Below are positions 1-62,910 of a stretch of 64,000 nucleotides of DNA, piece after piece (position 1 is the stretch's first letter; each line of letters opens with the position of its first letter). Below the pieces are notes generated by a model that worked only from the letters and a program-made list of their open reading frames with translations, was not told where the DNA came from and searched no databases. Both the position numbers and the translations under genes were made by a program. The stretch is from an uncultured Candidatus Saccharibacteria bacterium (GTDB lineage: Bacteria > Patescibacteriota > Saccharimonadia > Saccharimonadales > UBA10212): assembly GCA_964483315.1 (NCBI GenBank), contig CAZAAL010000003.1, positions 23,997 to 87,996 of the forward strand. The letters run 5' to 3'.

Positions 1-369
1 GTTTTAGATGCAATAAAAACAGCTGAACATAAAACAAAACAAAACAAAAATGGGACGTTAGCTCTATGTTTTAATTATGGCGGTCAACAAGAAATTGTAG
101 ATGCCGTAAAAGGAATGCTTGAAGACCGAGTTAATCCGGATGCGATTACACCGGCCTTGGTAGATCAGTACGTATATCACCCCGAGCTTCCTGAAGTCGA
201 TTTAATAATCAGAACATCAAACGAACAAAGGTTAAGCGGTTTTATGATGTGGCGTTCAAGTTATAGTGAGCTTTATTTTAGTAGTAAGTATTGGCCAGAT
301 TTTACTATTGAAGATACGAACAAAGCACTTTTAGATTATCAAAATCGCCAAAGGCGATACGGAAAATAA
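1..369 (+). CDS. uppS: Undecaprenyl (isoprenyl) diphosphate synthase, C-terminal part; 5' end lies outside the window
   Basis: Frame 1 is open from base 1. The C-terminal block DLIIRTSNEQRLSGFMMWRSSYSELYF...WPDF matches the conserved cis-prenyltransferase (UppS) C-terminus. Confidence 0.85.
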   Translation, partial: VLDAIKTAEHKTKQNKNGTLALCFNYGGQQEIVDAVKGMLEDRVNPDAITPALVDQYVYHPELPEVDLIIRTSNEQRLSGFMMWRSSYSELYFSSKYWPDFTIEDTNKALLDYQNRQRRYGK

Positions 370-395
370 AAACAAGGGTAGCTGTGTTAAAATAA

Positions 396-1589
396 GTGTC
401 GATGAGTGTAGCTTTAGCAATTTTAGGTTACTTGCTTTTTGTCGGCTTAATTTTGATCCATGAGTGGGGTCATTACAAGGCTGCAAAAAGGGCTGGTGTT
501 AAGGTTGAAGAGTTTGGCTTGGGCTTTCCGCCCAGGGCCTACGGCAAAAAACAAAAAGATGGAATGATACTGAGCATAAACTGGTTACCATTAGGCGGAT
601 TTGTTAAGTTGAAGGGTGAGCATGATATGGATAAAGGAAAAGGTTCATATGGCTCAACAAGCTTAAAAAACAAGGTAAAAATTTTACTTGCAGGTGTAAC
701 CATGAATTTTATCACCGCAATTGCAATCTTTACTTTACTGGCACTGATTGGCATGCCAAAGGTGGTTGAGAATCAATTTAAGGTTGCTAGCGATACAAAA
801 ACCATAAATCAAAATGTAGCCGCTGGCTTTGTTGATGAAGGGTCGCCCGCCAAGCAGGCTGGCTTAGAAAACAGGGATATCATCCTTTCTATCAAGCCAG
901 CTACCTGCATAGGTGAATCTGCAGAATGCTTAAATAAAATAACCTCAGCCGAAAGTTTGAGGCAGACAACTCAAAAACTTGCGGGGCAAGAGGTAATAAT
1001 TGCTGTCAAACAAAATGGGAACCAAACAGAGCTAAAAACGACCCTCAGAACCACCCAAGAAGTTGAATCTAGCAAAAACAGTTCAAACCCAGTTGGCTAT
1101 CTTGGTATTGTGCCGGTTGAGCTAGCGCAATATCAATCAACCTGGAGTGCACCAGTTACCGCAGTTGGCTTTACTACTCAGCTTACATGGTTAACACTTA
1201 AGGGTATAAGCTCGGCCTTATCAGGGCTAGGAAAAACCATAGCAGGCTTAGTTACTTTTAATAATCAAGCTCGTACAAATGGCCAAACTCAAGCTACCGA
1301 GCAAACTGGTGGGATCGTAGCCATTACCAGAATAATATGGGACAGTGGCTCGCTTGGTGTAGCATTTATGCTTATGATAATCGGAGTATTGTCACTAAGC
1401 TTGGCAGTAATAAATCTTTTACCGATTCCTGCACTAGATGGGGGTAGACTTGCAGTAACCTTGATGTTTAGATGGATAAAAAAGCCCTTAACTCCGGCTC
1501 TGGAGGAGCGTATTCATGGCACTGGCATGGCGGTTCTATTGACTTTATTTGTACTAATTACAATCGTAGATGTCAGACGATTCTATTAA
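396..1589 (+). CDS. rseP: RIP (site-2) zinc metalloprotease, RseP/M50 family
   Basis: HEWGH (HExxH) lies in the first TM helix. There is a central PDZ-like segment and a C-terminal LPIPALDGG motif. It follows uppS, as in many bacteria. Confidence 0.85.
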   Translation: MSMSVALAILGYLLFVGLILIHEWGHYKAAKRAGVKVEEFGLGFPPRAYGKKQKDGMILSINWLPLGGFVKLKGEHDMDKGKGSYGSTSLKNKVKILLAGVTMNFITAIAIFTLLALIGMPKVVENQFKVASDTKTINQNVAAGFVDEGSPAKQAGLENRDIILSIKPATCIGESAECLNKITSAESLRQTTQKLAGQEVIIAVKQNGNQTELKTTLRTTQEVESSKNSSNPVGYLGIVPVELAQYQSTWSAPVTAVGFTTQLTWLTLKGISSALSGLGKTIAGLVTFNNQARTNGQTQATEQTGGIVAITRIIWDSGSLGVAFMLMIIGVLSLSLAVINLLPIPALDGGRLAVTLMFRWIKKPLTPALEERIHGTGMAVLLTLFVLITIVDVRRFY

Positions 1590-2373
1590 AGCTGCAAAGC
1601 CAGCCCAAGAACCAAAAATAGCAAAAAAGCCACTTAAAGTCGACTTTGGTAACCCAGTTAAGGTCATATTACTTACCTTAGCAATCTTCTTATCAACCCA
1701 GCTTATATCTGCATTGATTATCGGCATAGTGTCGGTAATTGTTAACGGTAACTCAAGTGTTGAAAATTTATTTGAGGGCTCAGTACTATTAAACTTTATA
1801 TTTATACTACTAACTGAAGCGCTGACGTTTTTATTTGTATTTAAACTGATTGGCGGCTTGAAGTCACAACTTAAAAAAATTGGGTTAATCAGTCCACAGT
1901 GGCGAGATTTAGGCTATGCCTCAGTTGGTTTTATTGGATACTACGCAATATTATTAGTTGTTTCAATAATTGTATATACTCTAATTCCATCGATAGACAC
2001 TGATCAAAAGCAAGATTTGGGTTTTGAAGATCTAAAAAACAACCTAGAGCTTGTAATTGCGTTTTTTAGTCTTGTAATCCTGCCACCGTTAGGTGAAGAA
2101 ATATTGATGAGGGGCTATTTGTTTAGTGGTCTTAGATACAGATTAAAATTCTGGGTATCAGCATTAATTGTAAGTGTTCTTTTTGCTATTGCTCATTTGC
2201 AATTAGGCGGTTCAGAAGCACCTCTATGGGCTGCCGCAATAAACACTTTTGTACTATCTATGGTTTTGGTGTTTGTGCGTGAAAAATCGGGCAGTTTATG
2301 GCCGGCAATCTATATTCATATGTTAAATAATCTTGTAGCGTTCATTTACCTGTTTAAAGACAACATCTTTTAG
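1570..2373 (+). CDS. CPBP family intramembrane glutamic endopeptidase (CAAX protease-like)
   Basis: Polytopic membrane protein with EEILMRGY (EExxxR), FAIAH and HMLNN motifs typical of the CPBP/Abi family. Confidence 0.75.
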   Translation: MSDDSIKAAKPAQEPKIAKKPLKVDFGNPVKVILLTLAIFLSTQLISALIIGIVSVIVNGNSSVENLFEGSVLLNFIFILLTEALTFLFVFKLIGGLKSQLKKIGLISPQWRDLGYASVGFIGYYAILLVVSIIVYTLIPSIDTDQKQDLGFEDLKNNLELVIAFFSLVILPPLGEEILMRGYLFSGLRYRLKFWVSALIVSVLFAIAHLQLGGSEAPLWAAAINTFVLSMVLVFVREKSGSLWPAIYIHMLNNLVAFIYLFKDNIF

Positions 2374-2393
2374 ATTAAAATACTTAAGTAGCT

Positions 2394-3650
2394 ATGAGAA
2401 GAACTCAAATTTTTTTAAAGTCCAGGCATCAGTTTCCGGCTGATGAACAGAGTAAAAATGCCCAGTTGTTAATTAAAGCAGGCTATATTCACAAAGATTC
2501 AGCCGGCGTGTATGCTTATCTGCCACTAGGTCTGATGGTCATTGAGAATATTATACAAATCGTTCGGGAAGAGATGGCGGGTATCGGATCAAGCGAACTG
2601 CTCATGACCACTCTTCAGCGTAAAGAATTATGGGAAAGAACTAATCGTTGGTCGGACAGTGCAGTAGACGTGTGGTTTAAATCAAAACTTAAAAATGACA
2701 CAGAGGTGGGGTTGGCTTGGTCGCATGAGGAGCCAATAACTGAGATGATGCTGGAATTTATTGCGAGCTACCGTGATTTGCCAAAATATGTTTATCAATT
2801 CCAAACTAAACTACGTAACGAAACTCGAGCCAAAAGCGGAGTAATGCGTGCTAGGGAATTTTTAATGAAAGACCTATATTCCTATTCGGCATCAGATCAA
2901 GACCGCCAAAAGTTTTACGACGATGTAACCCAATCCTACATGAGGGTGTATCAACGACTCGGGCTTGGCGAGATAACTTATCTTACCTACGCCTCTGGAG
3001 GGGCATTTACCCAGTTCAGTCACGAGTTTCAAACACTTTGCTCGTCAGGTGAGGATAATATCTATCTAGATAAAGATAAAAAAATCGCCATTAACGATGA
3101 GGTGTTTTCCGATGAAGTTGTTGAGCAACTTGGCCTAAACAAAGATAATTTAAAGCTTGTTAAAGCGGCTGAGGTTGGTAATATATTCAACTTCGGTACC
3201 CAAAAAGCCGAGGAGTTAGGATTATATTTCACAGATGAAGATGGTCAAAACAAACCAGTGTACATTGGCTCTTATGGAATTGGTGTAAGTCGGCTTATGG
3301 GTGTTATGACCGAATGCTTTGCTGATGATAAGGGCTTAGTCTGGCCAGAGGCAGTGGCGCCATTTAAGGTTTATCTAGCTAGGCTTTCAACTGATGAAAA
3401 AGTTGTTAAAACAGCAGATGAAATTTATAACAAGTTGACAGCAAAAGGCGTTAGTGTAATATATGATGACCGAGAGGCAAGAGCTGGCGAAATCTTAACA
3501 GATGCCGAGCTGATGGGCATGCCTTATAGAGTAGTTGTGAGTGAACGTACCACAGACAGCGGACTTCACGAGCTAAAGAATCGCTCTAATGGTGATCAAA
3601 AAAACATTTCAGTCGACGAACTTATAAATATTGTAGCCAAAACCGAATAG
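2394..3650 (+). CDS. proS: Proline--tRNA ligase, short form without an INS editing domain
   Basis: Class II aaRS motifs. The N-terminus (QLLIKAGYI...GVYAYLPLG) and C-terminal anticodon-binding domain are typical of ProRS. At 418 aa there is no room for the bacterial insertion domain. Confidence 0.85.
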   Translation: MRRTQIFLKSRHQFPADEQSKNAQLLIKAGYIHKDSAGVYAYLPLGLMVIENIIQIVREEMAGIGSSELLMTTLQRKELWERTNRWSDSAVDVWFKSKLKNDTEVGLAWSHEEPITEMMLEFIASYRDLPKYVYQFQTKLRNETRAKSGVMRAREFLMKDLYSYSASDQDRQKFYDDVTQSYMRVYQRLGLGEITYLTYASGGAFTQFSHEFQTLCSSGEDNIYLDKDKKIAINDEVFSDEVVEQLGLNKDNLKLVKAAEVGNIFNFGTQKAEELGLYFTDEDGQNKPVYIGSYGIGVSRLMGVMTECFADDKGLVWPEAVAPFKVYLARLSTDEKVVKTADEIYNKLTAKGVSVIYDDREARAGEILTDAELMGMPYRVVVSERTTDSGLHELKNRSNGDQKNISVDELINIVAKTE

Positions 3651-3727
3651 GCTTGATAAAATCATTTAAATACGAATTTGTAGGGATGTTTATTTAAGGA
3701 GTAAATACACCAAGCGGACTTAATATT

Positions 3728-4186
3728 ATGAAAAAACAATTCCATTTAACACAAGCAGGTATTGATGAGCTAAAGTTAGAGCATGAGAACTTAATTGCTC
3801 AGCGCAGTCCGTTAGCGGATAGAATTAAACAGGCTCGAGAACTTGGTGATTTAAGTGAAAATGCCGAATATCAAACTGCAAGGGAAGAACAAGGAAAGCT
3901 CGAAAGTCGCATTAGTGAAATTGAGCATATACTCCAAAACGTGGAGGTAATCAAAAAACCAAAAGGAACGGTTATGGTTCAACTTGGCTCTACGGTCAAG
4001 CTATCGGGTAACGGATCACAAAAAGTATTCCAAGTAGTTGGTACTGTTGAAGCCGATCCACTAAACGGAAAAATCAGCGACGAATCACCCATCGGTCAAG
4101 CATTAATGGGTAAATCAGTTGGCGATAAGGTTGAGATTGTAACCCCAGTAGATACGGCTGTCTACAAAGTCGCTAACATATCTTAA
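3728..4186 (+). CDS. greA: Transcription elongation factor GreA
   Basis: N-terminal coiled coil with the acidic tip (ELGDLSENAEYQTAREEQ) and a C-terminal FKBP-like domain (SDESPIGQALMGKSVGD). Confidence 0.9.
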   Translation: MKKQFHLTQAGIDELKLEHENLIAQRSPLADRIKQARELGDLSENAEYQTAREEQGKLESRISEIEHILQNVEVIKKPKGTVMVQLGSTVKLSGNGSQKVFQVVGTVEADPLNGKISDESPIGQALMGKSVGDKVEIVTPVDTAVYKVANIS

Positions 4187-4228
4187 AATTGCTAGCGATA
4201 ACAGCTCAAAACATGTAAGCTAATTATT

Positions 4229-5752
4229 ATGAATTGGCTAAATAAAATTGTCGATCAAATAATTGCTAGTAGCGAAGGTGGTGAGATTATTGTGTCTTCT
4301 GGCGTGTCGCCATCAGGCAAGTATCATCTTGGAACCTTACGTGAAGTTCTTACAGCCGAGGTAGTTGTTAGAGAACTAAAACATCGCAAGAAAAAAGCTA
4401 AACACATACACTTTGTTGATGATCTAGACGGTTTAAGAAAAATACCAATAGGGCTGCCTGAAGATTTCTCTCAATACCTAGGTCAGTCACTGTGCTTAGT
4501 ACCATCACCAGTTATTGGCTTTCATTCTTATGCTGAATATTTTTTGAGCGATCTGGTTGGTGCATGCAAGACTTTAAATCTTAAAATGGACATTCAAAAG
4601 TCACATGTTCGTTACAGGGAAGGCTTTTTTACTCCAGCGATTGAATCAGCGCTTAACAACATTACATCAATCAGGAATATTCTTGAAAACGTATCTGGCC
4701 ATAAGTTGGGCGATGAGTGGTCTCCGATCCAAATTAATGAAGACGGCTACTTAAAAAAGCGTCAATTTGTCAGCCTGGATCCAAAGTCAAAAACCCTTGT
4801 CTATAAAGATAAATCGGGTAAAAAGCAAAAGATCGATTATTCAAATGGTATGGTAAAACTTGATTGGCGAATTGATTGGCCGGCTAGATGGTGGTTACTT
4901 GGAGTGAATGCTGAGCCATTTGGACGCGATCATGCATCGGCTGGTGGGAGCTATGATACCGGTGCCCAAATTGTAAAAAATATTTTTGGCACACAGCCAC
5001 CTATACCGGTTGCTTATGATTTTATAAACAAGACTGGCGACACTAAAAAAATGAGCAAGAGTGCCGGTGACACCGTAAATCTGGCTGAATTACTTGAAAT
5101 ACTACCACCAGAAGTCGTATGGTTTTTTGTAATTAGGTATGAACCGAGTAAATTACTTTATTTTGACCAAAATGAAGGGGTAGTTAGATTAATTGATGAA
5201 TATGCTGAACTACTAGCAAAAGTTGATAAAAATGAATCAGAAAGGCAGCTGATAAGACTTTGCAGTGAAGGACTTAAGTCGACTATTAGCCAAGTGCCAT
5301 TTTCGTTATTAGTATCTAGCTATCAGGCAGCCTTAAAAGATAAAGACCAAACGATTAACATAATATCGAGAACCGAACATTCAAAAAATATTGACAAAGA
5401 GACAATACACAGAGAGCTAGATTTTATAGATAACTGGCTAAAGAGCTGGGCTCCAGAGGATGTTAAATTTGAACTACGCCAAAATGTAAACCATGCCGAA
5501 TTTACTGAGCAACAACGATCATATTTTATGAAACTGGCATATAAGATTGAAAATGCTCCAAAAGATGCTGATGGCGAATGGTTCCATAAGGTCATATATG
5601 AATTTAAAGAGTCAGGCGAAGTAATCGCCGACGATCTATTCAAACCACTTTATAAGCTATTGATTGGTAAAACTTCTGGCCCAAGGGCTGGTTGGTTTCT
5701 GTCAATCTTACCGAGGGACTGGCTTGTTAAGCGTCTAATGCTTGAAGTCTAA
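4229..5752 (+). CDS. lysK: Lysine--tRNA ligase, class I type
   Basis: Class I signature HLGT (HIGH-like, SGKYHLGTLRE) and KMSKS (KKMSKSAGD). Length and layout match class I LysRS rather than class II LysS. Confidence 0.8.
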   Translation: MNWLNKIVDQIIASSEGGEIIVSSGVSPSGKYHLGTLREVLTAEVVVRELKHRKKKAKHIHFVDDLDGLRKIPIGLPEDFSQYLGQSLCLVPSPVIGFHSYAEYFLSDLVGACKTLNLKMDIQKSHVRYREGFFTPAIESALNNITSIRNILENVSGHKLGDEWSPIQINEDGYLKKRQFVSLDPKSKTLVYKDKSGKKQKIDYSNGMVKLDWRIDWPARWWLLGVNAEPFGRDHASAGGSYDTGAQIVKNIFGTQPPIPVAYDFINKTGDTKKMSKSAGDTVNLAELLEILPPEVVWFFVIRYEPSKLLYFDQNEGVVRLIDEYAELLAKVDKNESERQLIRLCSEGLKSTISQVPFSLLVSSYQAALKDKDQTINIISRTEHSKNIDKETIHRELDFIDNWLKSWAPEDVKFELRQNVNHAEFTEQQRSYFMKLAYKIENAPKDADGEWFHKVIYEFKESGEVIADDLFKPLYKLLIGKTSGPRAGWFLSILPRDWLVKRLMLEV

Positions 5753-7391
5753 GCTCGAGCCCTCCAATATTTTTAGCGAAGTAGCTATCATGCGAAATAT
5801 AAATGATGGCTCCATTGTATTTTGTTAAGGCTTGCTCCAACTCTTCAATACTTGGTAAATCCAGGTGGTTAGTTGGTTCGTCTAGAATTAGTATATTTGG
5901 CTTGGTGCTTAGCATTCGAATTATCTGCAATCTAGCTTTTTGCCCACCACTTAAATCGGATACTTTTTTGCGTCCATCTGATATTGGGTCAAATAGGTAG
6001 TCAGACATTAGCCTTTTTACTTCTTGGGAGTTTATAGCTTGCTTGGCAGATTCGAGAGTTTTTTCAAGCGCCTGTTCAAGAGTTAAATGGAGTAGGTTGT
6101 CGCTAATCTCTTGCTCATAAACAGAAAGTCTTAACTTTTTATTCAATTTTATTTGACCAGCTAAAAGAGTTTTTGGTTGGTGGTTGTTGTATACGGAATC
6201 AATTGCTCTGACCAAAGTGGTTTTACCAACACCGTTTCGGCCAATTATATGTAGCCTATCAAAATGCCCAAGGCTAAATGAAGTTGGGGCAAAGAGCGGT
6301 TTTGTATAGCCAAGGCTAACCGACTCAAGTTTTACCAGTTCGGATTTTTGTTCGTCTAAACTATTGTGGGCAAGCTTTATATTTTTTGCTTTATATTTAT
6401 GATAAGACTGGCTGATTTTGGGGTTTAGGTTTTCTGAAGATTCTTGGTCAATCCAAAAACTTGGCTTGGGATTTTCGGCTTCAACCTTAACTAACTGTTT
6501 TTCGAGCCTTTCTTTAAGAACAATCCATGGGTTTTTTGAGGCCCCACCACGATATCCAGGCGCTTTAGCTTTGGCATATTCAATCCTGTCTTTAAGGTTC
6601 AGAATAGTTTTTTGAGCAATCTCAAAATTTTGTAAATCTGAACTGGTTTTTTGAGTATTTTGCATCAAGTATTCATCGTAGCCACCTTTATATGAAAAGG
6701 CTTTTTTATCCTTTAGCTCGATTATTCTATCAACCTGTTTTAACACATCGCGGTCATGGCTAATGACGATTACGCCAAAATCTACCTCATTTAACCATTT
6801 AATAAAGGCAGATTTTGCAATAAAATCCATATGATTGGTCGGCTCATCGATTAAGGCTATATCTGGCTTTGAAAGTTGAACTCTAACCAGTTCAGCAAAT
6901 CTTTTCTGACCACCACTAAGATTTTTAAAAGGTTTGTATGCCATTGACTCTGGTATCTGGTAATCATTAAGTAACTGAATTGTATTTTGCTCTACATTAA
7001 AATAATCCAGTCTGTTAAATTCCTCCAAAGCATCACTATACTGGTGGATTAGGTGCATCTTGGAGTTCATTTTGTTTGGGTAGGTATCGATTATAGTTTT
7101 TAGTTCGCTGTAGCGGGGTAGTCCGCTTGATATATATTCCACTACGCTTAGCTTTGTTTGGCTTGGGCTAAATTCTTGCTGGGTGCTAATTAAAATTGCT
7201 GATTTTTTTATATCGATAAGCCCATCGTATTCGGTATCGCTACCGTTAATCATTCTAAAAAGGGTGGTTTTACCGCAACCATTACGACCGATAAGTGCAA
7301 CTCGTTCTTTTTCATGCAATGAAAACTCTAAATTTTCTAGCAAGGGCTCGCTACCCATAATCTTTTGCCTGATTAGAACATTAATCAACAT
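5727..7391 (-). CDS. ABC-F family ATPase with two ABC cassettes and no TM domain (Uup/EttA-like)
   Basis: Two Walker A sites (GRNGCGKTT, GRNGVGKTT), two LSGGQK signatures and two DEPTNH(M/L)D Walker B/D-loops, joined by a charged linker. Confidence 0.8.
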   Translation of the reverse strand: MLINVLIRQKIMGSEPLLENLEFSLHEKERVALIGRNGCGKTTLFRMINGSDTEYDGLIDIKKSAILISTQQEFSPSQTKLSVVEYISSGLPRYSELKTIIDTYPNKMNSKMHLIHQYSDALEEFNRLDYFNVEQNTIQLLNDYQIPESMAYKPFKNLSGGQKRFAELVRVQLSKPDIALIDEPTNHMDFIAKSAFIKWLNEVDFGVIVISHDRDVLKQVDRIIELKDKKAFSYKGGYDEYLMQNTQKTSSDLQNFEIAQKTILNLKDRIEYAKAKAPGYRGGASKNPWIVLKERLEKQLVKVEAENPKPSFWIDQESSENLNPKISQSYHKYKAKNIKLAHNSLDEQKSELVKLESVSLGYTKPLFAPTSFSLGHFDRLHIIGRNGVGKTTLVRAIDSVYNNHQPKTLLAGQIKLNKKLRLSVYEQEISDNLLHLTLEQALEKTLESAKQAINSQEVKRLMSDYLFDPISDGRKKVSDLSGGQKARLQIIRMLSTKPNILILDEPTNHLDLPSIEELEQALTKYNGAIIYISHDSYFAKNIGGLELRLQALDA

Positions 7392-7420
7392 AGGTTATAT
7401 CTTACCACTGTTGCTGTATA

Positions 7421-8131
7421 ATGTGGGTAAAGGGTATAGATGTGATTGAGGTAAAAAATTTAACAAAAATTTATGGCAAAGGCGAAAATCAGTTCAAAGC
7501 ATTGGATGCTGTAAATTTTCGGGTTGATTTAGGCCCGACGGTTGCGATTATTGGCAAAAGTGGTAGCGGAAAAAGTACATTGATGCATTTAATGAGTGGG
7601 CTCGATAAAGCCGATAGTGGTCAAGTCATAGTAGCCGGACAAGATATTCAAAAAATGAGCCAAAAGGAAGCTGATAGGTTTCGAGCTACAGACATGAGCT
7701 TTATTTTTCAGTCTTTTTTTGTTGAGGCAAATCAAACATGTTTTCAGAATGTGAGCCTTCCGCTTGAGATCGCGGACGTCCCGCGTACCGTGCGAGCTAA
7801 AATGATAACTACCGCGCTTGATAAAGTGGAACTGTCCGATAAAATACACGAGCCGTCAGTAAATTTAAGTGGCGGTCAAAAGCAACGCCTAGCAATCGCA
7901 CGTGCAATCGTAGCTAGTCCAAAAATTATTTTTGCCGATGAGCCGACCGGTAATCTAGATAGCTTAACCGGTGAAAAGGTCATGGATTTATTATTCGGCA
8001 TAAGTAAAAATCAGGGAACAACTTTATTTATCGTTACACATGATGAGGACTTGGCAAAAAAATGCCAAGTTCAAATAAAGCTGCACGATGGCAAGGTAGT
8101 TGATGTTAAAACAAAGGCTAAAAACCGATGA
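7421..8131 (+). CDS. ABC transporter ATP-binding protein, MacB/LolD-like
   Basis: GKSGSGKST Walker A, LSGGQKQR signature and FADEPTGNLD Walker B. The start could instead be GTG 7442. Confidence 0.85.
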   Translation: MWVKGIDVIEVKNLTKIYGKGENQFKALDAVNFRVDLGPTVAIIGKSGSGKSTLMHLMSGLDKADSGQVIVAGQDIQKMSQKEADRFRATDMSFIFQSFFVEANQTCFQNVSLPLEIADVPRTVRAKMITTALDKVELSDKIHEPSVNLSGGQKQRLAIARAIVASPKIIFADEPTGNLDSLTGEKVMDLLFGISKNQGTTLFIVTHDEDLAKKCQVQIKLHDGKVVDVKTKAKNR

Positions 8132-9513
8132 AAAGTTTTGATATTGCTCGTCGAAGCGGAAGAAGCTTGCGTGCAGCCAAGCTTCGCACTATTTTGACGG
8201 CACTGGCTATAGCAGTTGGTGGCTTTACACTTGTTTTAACGCTTGCAGCCAGTAACGGCCTAAGAAACTATACCGATAAACTCATTAGTTCTAACTACGA
8301 TCCAGCAGAGTTATTTGTTGGCCGAGACCCTGAAGTTTCAAATAATGGCACGCCATCAGATACACCAAAAGAATATGACGAATCTGTCTCCTCACTTGAT
8401 ATTGGTGGTGGTGCCTCAGGTAGTCTGCAGATAAAAAGGGTAACGGCTGATGATGTTGAACAACTAAAAAAACTTGAATATGTTGAAAATGTCCGCGAGA
8501 GTTACCAGATAAATGTTCGCTATGTAACCCGTGATGGCCAAAAAAAATACACAGCCAGTGCCGAAGCATATAATCCAGCTCAAAAACCAGAAATTAAAGC
8601 CGGAGACTTGCCAGAAACAGGTGATATCTCGCAGGGTAAAGTATTGCTACCAGATAACTATTTGAGCGTTCTGGGTTTTAATAGTCCAGATGAAGCAATC
8701 GGACAACAAATTAGGATCACTGTTCAAAGGCCTTTTTCAGTATCAACACTCCAACAACTACTATCGACTAATCAAAGTTTAGATAGCATCGACCCCAATG
8801 ATGTAAAACCAGAAGAAAAAACCTATAGCTTCGAAGTAGTTGGTGTAACCAAAAAACCAGCGACAAGTCTCAGTTTTGGTGTGTCTCCAATTTTACTGTC
8901 GCAAACAGACGCTAAAAGTTTATATGATATTACAACCCAAGGCACCGCCGATTATGAAAAATACCTGTTTGTTTATGTAAGGGTCAAAGATGGCACCCAG
9001 CAGGCAAATATTGATTCGGCCAAATCCAATTTAATAGCCAAGGGCTACTATGTGCAAAGCACAAAAGATGTTCAGCAGGCAATCAACCAATTTGTAAACA
9101 TTTTAACAATTATGGTGGGAGTTTTTGGTTTGATAACAATCATTGCGTCTGTTTTTGGAATAATCAATACCCAGTACATTAGCGTTCTTGAAAGAACTAG
9201 AGAAATTGGTCTAATGAAGGCGTTGGGTATGCGCAGAAAAGATATTAATAAATTGTTTATTTTTGAAGCAGCTTGGATTGGGCTAATGGGCGGAATAATT
9301 GGATCTATCATAGGTATCTTACTGGGGATTGGTCTTAATCCGTTAATAACCAAACAGCTTGAGCTTGGTGAAGGCGAAAGCCTTTTAGTCTTTAAGCCGG
9401 TCCAGGTTCTTTTATTAATTTTATTCTTAATGCTTGTGGCAACACTCGCAGGGCTACTGCCAGCCCGTAAAGCTAGCAAGCTTGATCCGATAACTGCACT
9501 AAGGACAGAATAA
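8128..9513 (+). CDS. ABC transporter permease, FtsX/MacB-type, with a large extracytoplasmic domain
   Basis: N-terminal TM helix, about 270 aa of extracytoplasmic domain, then a C-terminal FtsX-like 3-TM bundle ending LPARKASKLDPITALR. ATGA overlap with the upstream ATPase gene. Confidence 0.8.
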   Translation: MKSFDIARRSGRSLRAAKLRTILTALAIAVGGFTLVLTLAASNGLRNYTDKLISSNYDPAELFVGRDPEVSNNGTPSDTPKEYDESVSSLDIGGGASGSLQIKRVTADDVEQLKKLEYVENVRESYQINVRYVTRDGQKKYTASAEAYNPAQKPEIKAGDLPETGDISQGKVLLPDNYLSVLGFNSPDEAIGQQIRITVQRPFSVSTLQQLLSTNQSLDSIDPNDVKPEEKTYSFEVVGVTKKPATSLSFGVSPILLSQTDAKSLYDITTQGTADYEKYLFVYVRVKDGTQQANIDSAKSNLIAKGYYVQSTKDVQQAINQFVNILTIMVGVFGLITIIASVFGIINTQYISVLERTREIGLMKALGMRRKDINKLFIFEAAWIGLMGGIIGSIIGILLGIGLNPLITKQLELGEGESLLVFKPVQVLLLILFLMLVATLAGLLPARKASKLDPITALRTE

Positions 9514-36851: not shown

Positions 36852-36933
36852 AATAACAATATTTTACAACGCCAATAGCAAATACATTTGTGTATAATTT
36901 AAACCAGTATTTCGTTGGAGGGTAACAATATAG

Positions 36934-37650
36934 ATGCGTCGTGGCCAATTATTAAATGGCGATAGCGAAACCGAGCTCATGCTGTCGGCTATTGCTCATG
37001 ACTTATCATTACCACTACTACAAATTAAAGCCAAAGCCGAACTCGGCAAGTTCAACAACAAAACCTCAGAGGAATTTAAACTACTTACTCAGTCTGGGTT
37101 AAAGCTCATTGATAGTTATTTAATTGCGCTTGAATTTCGACAAAGCGCTAATCAGCTTGTGCTCGAGCCCGTATCCATTGGTTCGGTTTTAGCGGATTCA
37201 GCCCACGAGTTAAGTAAACTCGCTGAATATTACAAAACTAAAATAGAAATTAATATTACGGGGCGAGCCAGACCAATTCTTACTAACAAAGCAAGTTTAC
37301 AATCTGCTTTTTATTGTTTAGGCGCCAGCTTAATAAAAAGTCAGGCCGATTCTGAGTCTAAAAATAACGTTTTAGTACTGTCAGCTTATAAAAATAAACA
37401 GGACAGTATAACAGCTGGTATTTATGCAAATATCTTAGGCTTAACAGATAAAGAGTTGTACAATTCCAGAAAATTAGCCGGTAAGGCTAAACAGCCATTT
37501 AGCGCATTATCATCAAGTAGTGGTGGTGGAATTTTAATTGCCGACATGTTGTTGACGACTTTATACCAGCCGCTTCGGGCATCAAAATTCAAACATCTAT
37601 CTGGCTTTTCGACACAGTTCCCAATATCCAAGCAGTTAAGGCTGGTTTAA
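36934..37650 (+). CDS. Soluble histidine-kinase-like protein with an H-box but a degenerate ATP-binding domain
   Basis: H-box-like SAIAHDLSLPL. The downstream region lacks a recognisable N-box Asn and DxGxG. Only a G-rich SSSGGGILIA element remains. Confidence 0.5.
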   Translation: MRRGQLLNGDSETELMLSAIAHDLSLPLLQIKAKAELGKFNNKTSEEFKLLTQSGLKLIDSYLIALEFRQSANQLVLEPVSIGSVLADSAHELSKLAEYYKTKIEINITGRARPILTNKASLQSAFYCLGASLIKSQADSESKNNVLVLSAYKNKQDSITAGIYANILGLTDKELYNSRKLAGKAKQPFSALSSSSGGGILIADMLLTTLYQPLRASKFKHLSGFSTQFPISKQLRLV

Positions 37651-60122: not shown

Positions 60123-60983
60123 CTAAAATGCAACCCATAGCCCATTGCCAAGTGGCTTTATTAGACCTTTTATTTCAAGCAAAGTCAGATTGTAAGCTAG
60201 CTCGTTTGCCTTAATGTTTAAAGTGCTAGCCATATCATATTCACTGTTTTTACCGTTAGCAATATTATTCATTATCTCAATTTGAATTTCCGATAAATCT
60301 GAAGTGTTTTTCTCTGTGGATTTCGAGTTTTCTTGTAGGCCAATAGCTTCAAGAATGTCCGTATATGAGCTAACAAGCCCTGCCCCATTTTTTAAAAGTT
60401 GGTTAGTGCCCTGGCTAGCATTACTATAGATACTACCAGGTACGGATAAGACCGGTATTCCTAAATCCAAGGCGAACTCCGCGGTATGCAAACTACCGCT
60501 ACCAATTGTTGCCTCTGTTATGACAACAGCATGTGATAAACCAGCAATAATACGATTACGCGCAACAAAGGCGTGCTTAAAGTTTAAAGTTTCTTGATCT
60601 GGTGGAAACTCACTTATTAAACTCCCCCCACTACTTAAGATCGATTCTGCAATACCATAATGGGACTTAGGATAAATTTTATTGATACTAGATGGTAAAA
60701 CTGCAACCGTGCAACCGTTAGAACTAACTGTTGTCTGGTGTGCTATACTATCGATCCCAAGAGCTAAGCCACTGATAATTACTACTCCACGCTTGGCTAG
60801 TTGGCTTGCCAGATCTTTTGTAACTGCTTGGCCATATGCTGTTGGCTTGCGTGTTCCGATAATTGCAACTCGCGGTTTACTTAGCCATTGACTTGGTTTA
60901 GCCCCTCGAACATAAATTTGTTTTGGCATAGGCCGAACATTAGTTAAGGTATCGGGATATTTATTTGGTTTAAGCGTTAGCAT
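60123..60983 (-). CDS. dprA: DNA-processing protein DprA (Smf)
   Basis: Rossmann-like DprA core (VAIIGTRKPTAYG, ISGLALGIDSIAH, VVITEATIGSGSLHTA) and a C-terminal winged-helix-like tail. Confidence 0.85.
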   Translation of the reverse strand: MLTLKPNKYPDTLTNVRPMPKQIYVRGAKPSQWLSKPRVAIIGTRKPTAYGQAVTKDLASQLAKRGVVIISGLALGIDSIAHQTTVSSNGCTVAVLPSSINKIYPKSHYGIAESILSSGGSLISEFPPDQETLNFKHAFVARNRIIAGLSHAVVITEATIGSGSLHTAEFALDLGIPVLSVPGSIYSNASQGTNQLLKNGAGLVSSYTDILEAIGLQENSKSTEKNTSDLSEIQIEIMNNIANGKNSEYDMASTLNIKANELAYNLTLLEIKGLIKPLGNGLWVAF

Positions 60984-61014
60984 ATTGACACAACAATAAA
61001 ATTATTAAATACTA

Positions 61015-61043
61015 TTGACATAAAACAACTTTTTTGCTAAAAT
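61015..61043 (+). promoter_or_regulatory. Consensus sigma-70-type promoter TTGACA-N17-TAAAAT
   Basis: -35 at 61015-61020 and -10 at 61038-61043. A second ATTGACA lies 30 bp upstream (60984-60990). Confidence 0.5.
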
Positions 61044-61049
61044 TGCAAC

Positions 61050-61470
61050 CTGTAAGTACTCGTTGTAGTTCTTACGCACCTTATACCCCCAATTTCTAAT
61101 CCGTTCTTACACTAGAACGAATTAGCATATTAGATTGTTTTAGAGTGAGTCACGCTTTCGTTGTTACCCTCCACGAAAATCCGTGCGCTTTGGCACTTGT
61201 GCCTTTGCCACTCTAAAACATACTAATCCCTTTAACTCTCCTCCAGGTTTTTCCCTGGAGTACCCAACTCAATGTGGGGCGGTATGTCTGCCTATGGTGG
61301 ATGTTCTCGCACTAAACTTTGGCTATTATCTAACAAGATAACAATCAGCGTTTAGTGCGAGACGGCTCTCATGCACTCGCTGAATGAGGCTATCGAGACG
61401 CTTTACCGAGGTGGGTTGAAGGGTGTAATGAGCTCCGGCGGTGCCCACCCCCTCCGGAGCTCTTTACATT
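61050..61470 (+). ncRNA. Candidate structured non-coding RNA or long 5' leader (family unassigned; strand uncertain)
   Basis: No ORF of 60 aa or more. Visibly GC-richer than the flanks. Nested helices at 61052-56/61071-75, 61083-90/61277-85, 61096-61107/61114-25, 61129-47/61209-27 (19 bp with a 2x2 internal loop), 61192-95/61200-03 (CUUG loop), 61241-47/61254-60, 61305-17/61350-62 (13 bp) and 61326-31/61336-41. Terminal hairpin 61430-38/61454-62 is followed by TTTACATTT. Confidence 0.4.
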
Positions 61471-61505
61471 TAATGGGAATTAATCTAAAGATTAAATAAA
61501 CAATT

Positions 61506-62261
61506 ATGGATCAATCAGACTTTAGACAATTTATCCACGACAGTGCTTTGATATATGAAAAACCGTCGCTAGATTATTACAACGAGCTAAAATGGTTGCC
61601 TTTTAAAGATAGGCTAAGAAGGCTCTGGCGCTATAAGCTGATAGGTGGGTTTTGCGTGTTCGAGATGGGAATGTCGGTAGACTCTGACGAGTACCTAGGC
61701 AATGGTGGCGAGCACGTTGTCTACTTTTCTCAAGACAAAGCCAAAAAAATCGTCTGGACTTCATTGTCAAAAGATCGTACACAGCTTGAAGGTCAGCTGA
61801 GCCATTTTAATCATCAGGAGCAGATTGGGCGAACATATATGGGTAAACATTGGATACCGACAAGCTATGAAGTCAAAAATGTATTATTCGGTAAAAGTGC
61901 GATTGTTAGCGAACAACCTAAGCTAGAACATGGTTGGACATTTGATAATACAGATTGGCTCTTGGATTTTGCTAAAGAGATTAACTCGCCAAAGTTAAAC
62001 CATGCTATAAGATCGTTTTCGGCGTCAGCTCGGCGACTTAATGCTAATACCGGGCTATATCCCGATATTTTAGGTCCGAACAACTTAACGATATTTTTTG
62101 AAGATCATGAAGGCTCGCCGCCTTTCGGGCTAGCTATACTTGATACGATTTTGGTTGATCAAGCAAAACAACAGGAACCATCCTTAGAAGATTGTAATAT
62201 CACAAGAGGAGAGCTTATCGACAGGAAACTACGTGAGCTTGAACTCTATGCTTCCGACTAG
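61506..62261 (+). CDS. Hypothetical protein with protein-kinase-like motifs
   Basis: LGNGGEHVVY (Gly-rich loop-like), AKKIV (Lys), YPDILGPNN (D-x4-N catalytic-loop-like) and ILDT (metal-binding Asp-like). No SD upstream. Confidence 0.45.
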   Translation: MDQSDFRQFIHDSALIYEKPSLDYYNELKWLPFKDRLRRLWRYKLIGGFCVFEMGMSVDSDEYLGNGGEHVVYFSQDKAKKIVWTSLSKDRTQLEGQLSHFNHQEQIGRTYMGKHWIPTSYEVKNVLFGKSAIVSEQPKLEHGWTFDNTDWLLDFAKEINSPKLNHAIRSFSASARRLNANTGLYPDILGPNNLTIFFEDHEGSPPFGLAILDTILVDQAKQQEPSLEDCNITRGELIDRKLRELELYASD

Positions 62262-62268
62262 CCAAATA

Positions 62269-62910
62269 TTACAAGACTGCTCGGGTGTCGTGAGGCAAAC
62301 TGCCACCGCTAAAAATAAATTCTGTAGTGATCGCTGAAGCTTCGCGCAAAATATCGCCGACAGCCTTAAGCTCATTTTTAGAAAACTCTTTTAAAACGTA
62401 GCTTTCTGGCTTGGCTTTTTTTGCAATATCTGAGCCGATACCAACCCTTAGGCGCCCAAAATCTTCACCAATATGTTCGATTAAAGATTTTACGCCGTTA
62501 TGCCCTGCAGACTCACCACCAACACGCATCCGAATTTGGCCAAACTCAATTGCTAGTTCGTCATATATCACCAAAGTTTGCTCATTATATAAGTCGTAAT
62601 ATTCTTGAACTGCTCGAACAGCCTGCCCGCTTAAGTTCATTTGTGTTAATGGTTTGATTAAAATTACCCGATTGCCAGATAGGTTATCAATTGTAACCTG
62701 GCATTTTAGATCCTTATTTTCCTTAAACCCGGGCATTTCATTACGTTCAGCAAAATCATCAACTGCCATAAAACCGATGTTATGACGGGTCTTTTGATAT
62801 TTTTTGCCAAAGTTACCAAGCCCCACGATTAAGAATGTTTTTTGCGAACCAATATTATACAGGGGCTGAGTTGTTGAATAGGTTTGACGTTGTCTTTGAA
62901 GTAATCCCAT
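62269..62910 (-). CDS. pth: Peptidyl-tRNA hydrolase
   Basis: FLIVGLGNFGKKYQKTRHNIGF N-terminus and GHNGVKS block typical of Pth. Confidence 0.9.
   Translation of the reverse strand: MGLLQRQRQTYSTTQPLYNIGSQKTFLIVGLGNFGKKYQKTRHNIGFMAVDDFAERNEMPGFKENKDLKCQVTIDNLSGNRVILIKPLTQMNLSGQAVRAVQEYYDLYNEQTLVIYDELAIEFGQIRMRVGGESAGHNGVKSLIEHIGEDFGRLRVGIGSDIAKKAKPESYVLKEFSKNELKAVGDILREASAITTEFIFSGGSLPHDTRAVL

Follow-up and report, generated by a model that had tools for sequence, protein, structure and literature searches.

A conserved structured RNA gene beside dprA in Saccharibacteria

We examined a 64,000-nucleotide (nt) stretch of the genome of an uncultured Candidatus Saccharibacteria bacterium (contig CAZAAL010000003.1; the whole stretch is referred to here as the window), in which a gap at positions 60984 to 61505 lies between dprA (60123 to 60983, minus strand; Pfam DNA_processg_A, 1e-65) and a 251-amino-acid (aa) open reading frame (ORF; 61506 to 62261, plus strand). 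A first-pass annotation of this DNA had described the gap as lacking any ORF of 60 aa or more and had proposed that it holds an unassigned, structured plus-strand RNA, about 430 nt long, that has a promoter of its own and a terminal hairpin. No ORF in the gap exceeds 52 aa, and both the predicted folding and the conservation of the region support the proposal. From sequence comparison we are highly confident that the stand-alone gene at 61044 to 61472 on the plus strand, preceded by a promoter (61015 to 61043) and ending in a hairpin and T tract, is a real, conserved, and independently transcribed structured RNA gene of Saccharibacteria. The window contains one copy of it.

Homologous dprA-flanking regions, the existence of which the first-pass annotation had put forward as a check, are present in related Saccharibacteria. 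The closest DprA loci among GTDB species representatives belong to two Saccharimonadales/Saccharibacteria metagenome-assembled genomes (46% and 38% aa identity), and in both (loci L001 and L002) a match that takes in the promoter as well as the RNA of the window lies upstream of dprA in the corresponding orientation (nhmmer E, 4e-26 and 4e-24). Seven more loci picked through DprA only (L009, L010, L012, and L142 to L145) all carry the RNA as well, so that it is found upstream of dprA in 9 of 9 loci chosen in this way (nhmmer E, 1e-24 to 1e-114). A scan of metagenome contigs with the conserved motif CCCTCCAC-N36-66-ACTAANCCCTTTAAC, which runs from the D segment of the RNA to block E2 (both described below), returned at least 120 contigs, mostly from soil and rhizosphere; among the matches listed, 119 of 120 were confirmed by a hidden Markov model built from six sequences, most of them over the full length of the RNA. 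The locus counts given below (79, 81, 88, 99, 114, and about 130) rest on the fetched dprA loci and the matches listed from this motif scan. RNA length in the homologues ranges from 293 to 495 nt.

The position of the gene is fixed. Gene order is pth, variable small ORFs, RNA, dprA, and topA; tblastn found the same neighbors throughout, placing the RNA at one chromosomal position in about 130 loci, and the RNA keeps a conserved distance from dprA. On the pth side, the intervening ORFs vary from locus to locus, and in 27 of 88 loci the stop codon of a convergent pth lies less than 150 nt from the RNA 3′ end. The 251-aa window ORF, initially described as kinase-like, fills this slot but has no Pfam match and found only itself among 5.8 billion proteins; other genomes have different small ORFs or nothing there. 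Around 12 loci (L075, L082, L102, L103, L125, L128, L131, L135, L137, L099, L111, and L032) have no DprA by tblastn and have topA directly beside the RNA. The competence gene dprA thus seems to have been lost in some Saccharibacteria lineages that retained the RNA, and because these loci keep the RNA without dprA, the RNA does not depend on that gene. We found no match to the RNA in phage genomes (50,697 phage records), and just one IMG/VR contig has it (locus L020; IMGVR_UViG_3300049064_000004, 1 to 8444, with the RNA at 7972 to 8370 on the plus strand). This contig is without pth, dprA, and topA and carries, upstream of the RNA, genes for RecT, a PD-(D/E)XK-FtsK fusion, and C5 and N6 DNA methyltransferases; it may represent a prophage or integrative element inserted beside the RNA gene. 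The single-block pattern GGTGGGTTGAAGGGTRT is too unspecific, with eight of its nine viral-contig matches due to chance.

The promoter called in the first-pass annotation stands: TTGACA-N17-TGcTAAAAT (61015 to 61043, plus strand) matches at 11 of 12 positions in a motif scan, has the TG of an extended −10 element, and aligns across homologues (alignments A1 and A2). This strong sigma-70-type promoter places the predicted transcription start near 61049 to 61051. The promoter motif occurs upstream of the RNA in 86 of the 99 loci having enough upstream sequence, with the TG extension in 85 of those 86, and 113 of 114 loci have a T-rich tail after the terminal hairpin. Inside helices, G·U and A·C cells number 363 and 57, respectively; an A·C cell would read as G·U on the opposite strand. 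The promoter, the T tail, and the G·U/A·C ratio place the RNA on the plus strand and so settle a matter that had been left open. A second promoter-like site (TTGACA-N17-AATACT, 60985 to 61013, plus strand) adjoins the dprA start codon at 60983, and its reverse complement TGTCAAT sits immediately before the dprA ATG; since this site abuts the dprA start, the dprA and RNA promoters must be back-to-back or overlapping.

The 431-nt stretch has a minimum free energy (MFE) of −158.9 kcal/mol compared to −107.5 ± 6.0 for dinucleotide shuffles (z = −8.6), and all 81 extracted homologues have fold z scores below −3 (median, −6.8). The minus strand of the same stretch also folds well (z = −7.95). G+C content is 0.455 to 0.465 in the RNA region versus 0.33 to 0.41 in the nearest flanks; the enrichment reported at first therefore holds, modestly, against those flanks but not against many coding stretches, which the region resembles. 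Coding is unlikely because ORFs are short (longest plus-strand ORF in homologues: median, 40 aa; range, 11 to 89 aa) and indels between conserved blocks are of arbitrary length.

We aligned 79 nonidentical full-length sequences (293 to 495 nt) with MAFFT (alignment A3). Variable helices alternate with nearly invariant blocks in these sequences, and the invariant blocks lie in loops and junctions. Covariation, another check that had been proposed, is found in the main helices. RNAalifold on the MAFFT alignment gave 37 pairs (in helix H4, the E2:F pairing, and the terminal hairpin), 24 of them with compensatory changes. In a 60-pair model, 91.1% of cells are paired, compared to 39 to 56% when the 3′ partners are slid by 1 to 3 columns, and 37 pairs are changed on both sides; the covariation score is 0.326 versus 0.04 to 0.09 for the slid versions, and the observed values were reached by 0 of 500 shuffles. 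Covariation backs a scaffold of H1, H4 with the D hairpin, H6, and the terminal hairpin. This scaffold carries almost invariant, mostly C-rich segments (block B, the D loop, block E2, and the terminal loop) and one invariant G-rich strand, block F.

All elements lie on the plus strand and are described here from 5′ to 3′. The 5′ hairpin H1 (61051 to 61076; 61051 to 61057 paired with 61070 to 61076) is part of the MFE fold, and 5 of its 7 pairs are changed on both sides; by eye, TGTAAGT/ACTTACG alternates with GATTGGTT/AACCAAG between sequence types. The share of paired H1 cells, only 75%, is an undercount caused by a one-column shift of the second sequence type (e.g., L022) in the MAFFT alignment. 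The near-invariant, C-rich block B, CACCTTATACCCCCA (CACCUUAUACCCCCA; 61077 to 61091), in which ACCTT and CCCC are invariant in the 79 sequences, is either single-stranded or paired with F. It is followed by H3 (61095 to 61125), an optional hairpin of variable length that at its smallest is a 5-bp CTAAC/GTTAG stem closing a 4-nt loop, elsewhere carries long insertions, and is absent in L028. H4 (61129 to 61227; 61129 to 61146 paired with 61210 to 61227) surrounds the D hairpin together with another variable hairpin (about 61183 to 61209); pairing is kept in 96.9% of the cells of its 15 pairs, 11 of which show compensatory changes, as where GATTGTTTTAGAGCG/CGCTCTAAAACAA alternates with GGTTATATACACGG/CTGTGTATATATAC. 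The D hairpin has a short stem (61156 to 61160 paired with 61174 to 61178) and a 13-nt loop, TTGTTACCCTCCA (RNA UUGUUACCCUCCA; 61161 to 61173), of which TACCCTCCAC is invariant. The invariant block E2, CCCTTTAAC (CCCUUUAAC; 61228 to 61236), is complementary to GTTGAAGGG of block F and precedes a variable 3′ domain (61237 to 61408) with H5 (61241 to 61260), H6 (61274 to 61278 paired with 61402 to 61406), and a lineage-specific long hairpin (61305 to 61362). Measured with E2 and F included, this region is 73 to 196 nt long in the 14 homologues folded. In H6, 88.6% of cells are paired and 4 of 5 pairs are compensatory, the central pair being UA in 32 sequences, CG in 24, and UG in 9. Block F, (A/G)GGTGGGTTGAAGGG (GGUGGGUUGAAGGG; 61409 to 61423), is the sole conserved G-rich strand, with GGTGGGTT(G/A)AAGGG near-invariant. 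The terminal hairpin (61430 to 61441 paired with 61451 to 61463) has an invariant 9-nt loop, TGCCCACCC (UGCCCACCC; 61442 to 61450), compensatory changes in 12 of 12 pairs, and 95.7% of cells paired; together with its T-rich tail, which runs to 61472, it is probably an intrinsic terminator.

Much of the fold drawn in the first-pass annotation can be recognized in this scaffold. Its 5′ hairpin, the stems at 61096 to 61125 and 61241 to 61260, the helix 61129-61147/61209-61227 with two inner hairpins, and the GC-rich terminal hairpin are all in the sequence; its long-range helix 61083-61090/61277-61285 is missing from the MFE fold and is not conserved among homologues. The 13-bp helix 61305-61317/61350-61362 does exist in the window sequence but is not a general feature, being an insertion in the window that has a reduced form in the nearest relative.

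Two further observations concern H4. A mutual-information scan of A3, dominated by the split between the two sequence types, gave neither B nor the D loop a partner, except that D-loop column 271 may be linked to the H4 pair 219:398. In the variable 5′ half of the D loop (UUGUU versus UAACU), columns 271 and 273 (61163 and 61164) change together with this pair (61141:61215), with G accompanying U-A, A accompanying A-U, and U or A accompanying G-C; the co-change could reflect a base triple or tertiary contact and, equally, shared ancestry of subgroups. The H4 strands at 61137 to 61145 and 61213 to 61221 read GUUUUAGAG and CUCUAAAAC, which we take to be the same opening bases as in the Cas9 repeat:anti-repeat duplex. 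We treat this likeness as a coincidence, because the second sequence type has unrelated covarying bases and no cas gene is nearby.

Block F has three invariant complementary partners: E2 (for its 3′ half), the terminal loop (for its 5′ half), and B (for the whole block). The 9-bp F:E2 pairing is intact in 79 of 79 sequences, the only variation being U·G (67 sequences) to U-A (12 sequences). Pairing of F with the terminal loop joins GGGUGG to CCCACC(C), with 93.5% of cells paired; the GGTGGG/CCCACC complementarity had been pointed out before and is real, linking two invariant elements. The 10 F:B pairs, as in the single-sequence MFE fold, have 98.7% of cells paired and no covariation, and this pairing is incompatible with both F:E2 and F:terminal loop. 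Such a set of partners may mean that the core is pseudoknotted, that the RNA has two alternative global folds, or that its molecules contact one another.

As to function, we tentatively favor a trans-acting RNA that shows invariant C-rich loops to G-rich partners, Shine-Dalgarno regions included. The RNA would work in trans as a folded molecule, and the role of the scaffold would be to display the invariant C-rich loops to G-rich partners. Inside the molecule, F would pair with E2 and may in addition form a pseudoknot with the terminal loop, B being the alternative partner; outside it, the 13-nt D loop would pair with the Shine-Dalgarno regions of a few mRNAs and so control their translation or stability, the first candidate target being a histidine-kinase-like/response-regulator operon at 36934. 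Staphylococcus aureus RNAIII (RF00503) and the RsaE/RoxS class offer a parallel: they too are stand-alone, multihairpin RNAs, several hundred nucleotides long, with a strong promoter, a terminator hairpin, and conserved unpaired C-rich loop motifs. The candidate match of the D loop before gene 36934 would add complementarity of a loop to a Shine-Dalgarno region. The C-rich loops of RNAIII and RsaE/RoxS base-pair with Shine-Dalgarno regions of mRNAs. Unlike them, the window RNA lacks any sequence or covariance-model similarity, encodes no peptide, is conserved class-wide rather than genus-wide, and has invariant junctions, possible long-range or pseudoknot pairing, one candidate target, and few Shine-Dalgarno sites in its host; the likeness would be a functional one.

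The candidate target site, TGGAGGGTAACAA (36916 to 36928, plus strand), is complementary without mismatch to all 13 nt of the D loop, in which the anti-Shine-Dalgarno core CCUCC is found. It lies 5 nt upstream of the ATG of gene 36934 to 37650, which encodes a 238-aa histidine-kinase-like protein with no Pfam match and is followed by a response regulator gene and recO; one homologue is named HAMP-domain histidine kinase by NCBI. The predicted duplex of the D loop with 36916 to 36928 (−24.1 kcal/mol) is the best nonself site among 12,794 window tiles (mean, −5.7; standard deviation, 2.8). Perfect complementarity of 13 nt at the ribosome-binding site (RBS) recurs before the homologous genes in L146, which is on the same contig as RNA locus L010 (protein P0125, 56% identity; GAGGGTAACAACT), and in L147 (P0126, 58% identity; GTGGAGGGTAACA); in these two the complementarity registers are shifted and the remaining untranslated region differs. 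L150 (P0124, 65% identity) has GTGGAGG plus GTAA (7 + 4 nt) at the RBS, and L148 (P0182, 38% identity) and L149 (P0128, 44% identity) have no complementarity there. The complement of block B gave chance-level matches only in the window. In L149, the RBS region GTGGGGGTATG upstream of the P0128 gene (about 585 to 600) contains GGGGGTAT, the complement of AUACCCCC in block B, which may be chance. Many window genes have a TATAAT-like box ending 5 to 10 nt before the start codon (e.g., 17985, 33270, and 62269 to 62910), suggesting that leaderless mRNAs are widespread.

We regard the D-loop target lead as suggestive, and a number of points weigh against a trans-acting, Shine-Dalgarno-directed role. 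The D loop is invariant class-wide, but its site occurs only in a close clade (the window, L146, and L147, with a weaker version in L150), and these three or four positive genomes are related and so do not count as independent events. By our estimate, the chance probability of a 13-mer match in 64 kb is roughly 6e-3, and the target site includes the GGAGG Shine-Dalgarno core, a sequence enriched at start sites in any case. Few genes use a Shine-Dalgarno site (GGAG, GAGG, or AGGA at −20 to −4 in 11 of 61 genes), and 0.96 Mb of related loci contain no excess of D-loop complements (16 versus about 29 expected). Within the molecule, covariation cannot choose among F:E2, F:loop, and F:B because all partners are invariant, and a full 7-bp F:loop pseudoknot looks sterically strained because no unpaired loop residue separates the paired segment from the 3′ strand of the hairpin. 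Finally, the size, invariant junctions, possible pseudoknot, and variable peripheral helices are more typical of ribonucleoprotein (RNP)- or ribozyme-type RNAs than of regulators that act by base pairing.

Almost as likely as a trans-acting RNA with C-rich loops is an OLE- or raiA-like housekeeping RNP or tertiary-structure RNA that acts as a protein scaffold, a ribozyme, or a self-assembling RNA. The invariant blocks would then be a tertiary core or protein-binding sites, and the mRNA complementarity would be coincidental or a side function. Presence throughout the class at one fixed locus, a strong near-consensus promoter, invariant nucleotides in loops and junctions, covarying helices, and peripheral domains of 73 to 196 nt all speak for such an RNA, and the presence of three invariant partners, each excluding the others, for a single G-rich strand fits a conformational switch, intermolecular kissing (GGGUGGG with CCCACCC), or a pseudoknotted core. 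Like OLE and raiA motif RNA, the window RNA is several hundred nucleotides long and lineage-restricted, being near-universal within the Saccharibacteria sampled, and it places many invariant junction and loop nucleotides on a covarying scaffold in a stable housekeeping neighborhood. However, the Rfam models of OLE, raiA, ROOL, GOLLD, and HEARO give no match to it; the host is a member of the Saccharibacteria in the candidate phyla radiation (CPR); and there is no linked partner protein gene such as the oapA of OLE, the neighbors being ordinary housekeeping genes and variable ORFs. Nor does it match any known ribozyme or RNP family, and no tested result indicates a specific activity. A broader description, which we hold with confidence evenly divided, is that of a new large noncoding RNA (ncRNA) class, near-universal in Saccharibacteria, with a switchable or pseudoknotted core formed by C-rich loops and a G-rich strand and with a lineage-specific core function. 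That function could be to control globally those few mRNAs that have a Shine-Dalgarno site where translation is mostly leaderless, or it could be a novel RNP or ribozyme activity.

Far less likely is a strongly diverged RNase P RNA, transfer-messenger RNA (tmRNA), signal recognition particle (SRP) RNA, or 6S RNA that Rfam thresholds have missed, even though size, an own promoter and terminator, single copy, and conserved blocks with possible pseudoknots recall RNase P RNA or tmRNA. The first-pass annotation had recognized no common RNA family, and cmscan of both strands against Rfam gives none. Rfam 15 returned nothing at gathering score across the 64-kb window or in L001 and L002; at an E of ≤10, the region 60900 to 61600 gave just chance-level microRNA and small nucleolar RNA matches, and across the window and 10 homologous loci no family recurred among scattered chance matches, in a scan that does not list scores below roughly 12 to 15 bits. 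The lone 27.5-bit match to c-di-GMP-I-UAU, at one locus and on the minus strand as stored, is below the riboswitch threshold. ARAGORN found no tRNA or tmRNA in the window.

Family by family, the signatures are also missing. For RNase P RNA, there was no RF00010 or RF00011 match at an E of ≤10 in 11 representatives, and by inspection the invariant blocks on both strands lack the universally conserved P4 strands, GGAAAGUCC and ACAGAA..GGCUUA, that form the RNase P catalytic core. The G-rich block GGGUGGGUUGAAGGGUG bears a superficial likeness to the J11/12 region AGGGUGAAAGGGUG of Escherichia coli M1. tmRNA gave no ARAGORN or RF00023-clan match; the RNA has neither a 5′ GGGG/3′ CCA acceptor stem nor a T arm (GGUUCGAnUCC), and its 3′ end is a terminator hairpin with a conserved loop. 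6S RNA is a rod of about 180 to 200 nt with a large central bubble mimicking an open promoter, whereas the window RNA and its homologues, at 293 to 495 nt, have a multibranched consensus and no RF00013 match. No Rfam SRP match was obtained, and the helix-8 GGAA/AGCAGC motif is absent from the conserved blocks. Guide or scaffold RNAs of mobile systems (IscB/TnpB omega RNA/HEARO, retron msr-msd, tracrRNA, and IS110 bridge RNA) were rejected as well, there being no cognate protein gene adjoining and no HEARO match; the neighbors seen are topA, dprA, pth, purA/der, and variable small ORFs.

Published genomes leave some room for a divergent universal RNA: 10 of 35 circular CPR genomes have no RNase P RNA match at default thresholds (PMC8172020), and a Nanosynbacter genome is annotated with only two ncRNAs (PMC8830319). 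However, the diverged CPR RNase P RNAs keep a conserved core, as Lui et al. reported in 2021, and are all still detectable with RF00010 at low score (PMC8172020). Bacterial RNase P RNA (RF00010/RF00011, and the diverged CPR forms in PMC8172020) does resemble the window RNA in size, single copy, own promoter, conserved single-stranded blocks joined by variable helices, and long-range pairing, but the latter lacks the P4 sequences, its conserved blocks come in an unfit order, and it has no covariance-model match at an E of ≤10. We found no description of this RNA in the searchable literature (including PMC8172020, PMC13011429, PMC11109978, PMC5737381, PMC10633639, PMC8830319, and the TM7x transcriptome preprint). 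It is outside every Rfam 15 family and ranks as a new RNA class.

A cis-acting role is very improbable and already largely refuted by the comparative data, be it as a long 5′ leader or a riboswitch that conditionally terminates ahead of the downstream ORF or as a regulator of dprA-topA working by antisense or through a divergent promoter. Its appeal lies in the window, where the downstream ORF begins 43 nt past the hairpin and the GGTGGG/CCCACC alternative could resemble an antiterminator, and on the other side in the RNA −35 box, which lies about 31 nt from the dprA start codon at a conserved RNA-dprA spacing. The conditional terminator or antiterminator suggested in the first-pass annotation is not supported, in that many loci have no same-strand gene following, and the terminal loop and T tail are constitutive. 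Riboswitch, T-box, and attenuator candidates were rejected, the downstream gene being an orphan or absent and no Rfam riboswitch reaching threshold. We conclude that the RNA is not a leader because the downstream ORF is a nonconserved orphan, the ORFs between RNA and pth vary, and the convergent pth ends within 150 nt in 27 of 88 loci; the same observations, with the roughly 12 loci that keep the RNA without dprA, argue for action in trans rather than in cis.

A DNA-level or mobile feature (an attachment site, an integrative-element end, or a replication structure) or a small-protein gene is barely credible: the copy on the IMG/VR "viral" contig beside RecT, the PD-(D/E)XK-FtsK fusion, and two DNA methylases and the good folding of both strands would fit, but the gene holds a fixed position between housekeeping genes in about 130 loci, is single copy in the window, occurs in no phage genome and one IMG/VR contig, has G·U far in excess of A·C with a directional promoter and terminator, and contains only short ORFs and arbitrary indels.

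Few members of the CPR can be cultivated and manipulated genetically, and Saccharibacteria are among them (PMC10633639). Their genomes are stripped to about 0.7 to 1 Mb (contigs of 669 kb to 1.24 Mb; a 1.24-Mb contig, Ga0207644_10000001, carries RNA locus L067). Because a predicted transcript of about 400 nt has been kept at the same place in every lineage sampled despite these reduced genomes, the RNA very likely does something important; a dozen or more nucleotides are invariant in each of several loops. According to a 2022 TM7x transcriptome preprint, that organism has no validated small RNAs; if that remains true, this RNA would be the first of a conserved regulatory or structural kind to be specific to Saccharibacteria, and it would join the short list of large bacterial ncRNAs without an assigned function. 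The alignment and the motif let annotators mark the RNA gene in thousands of metagenome-assembled genomes.

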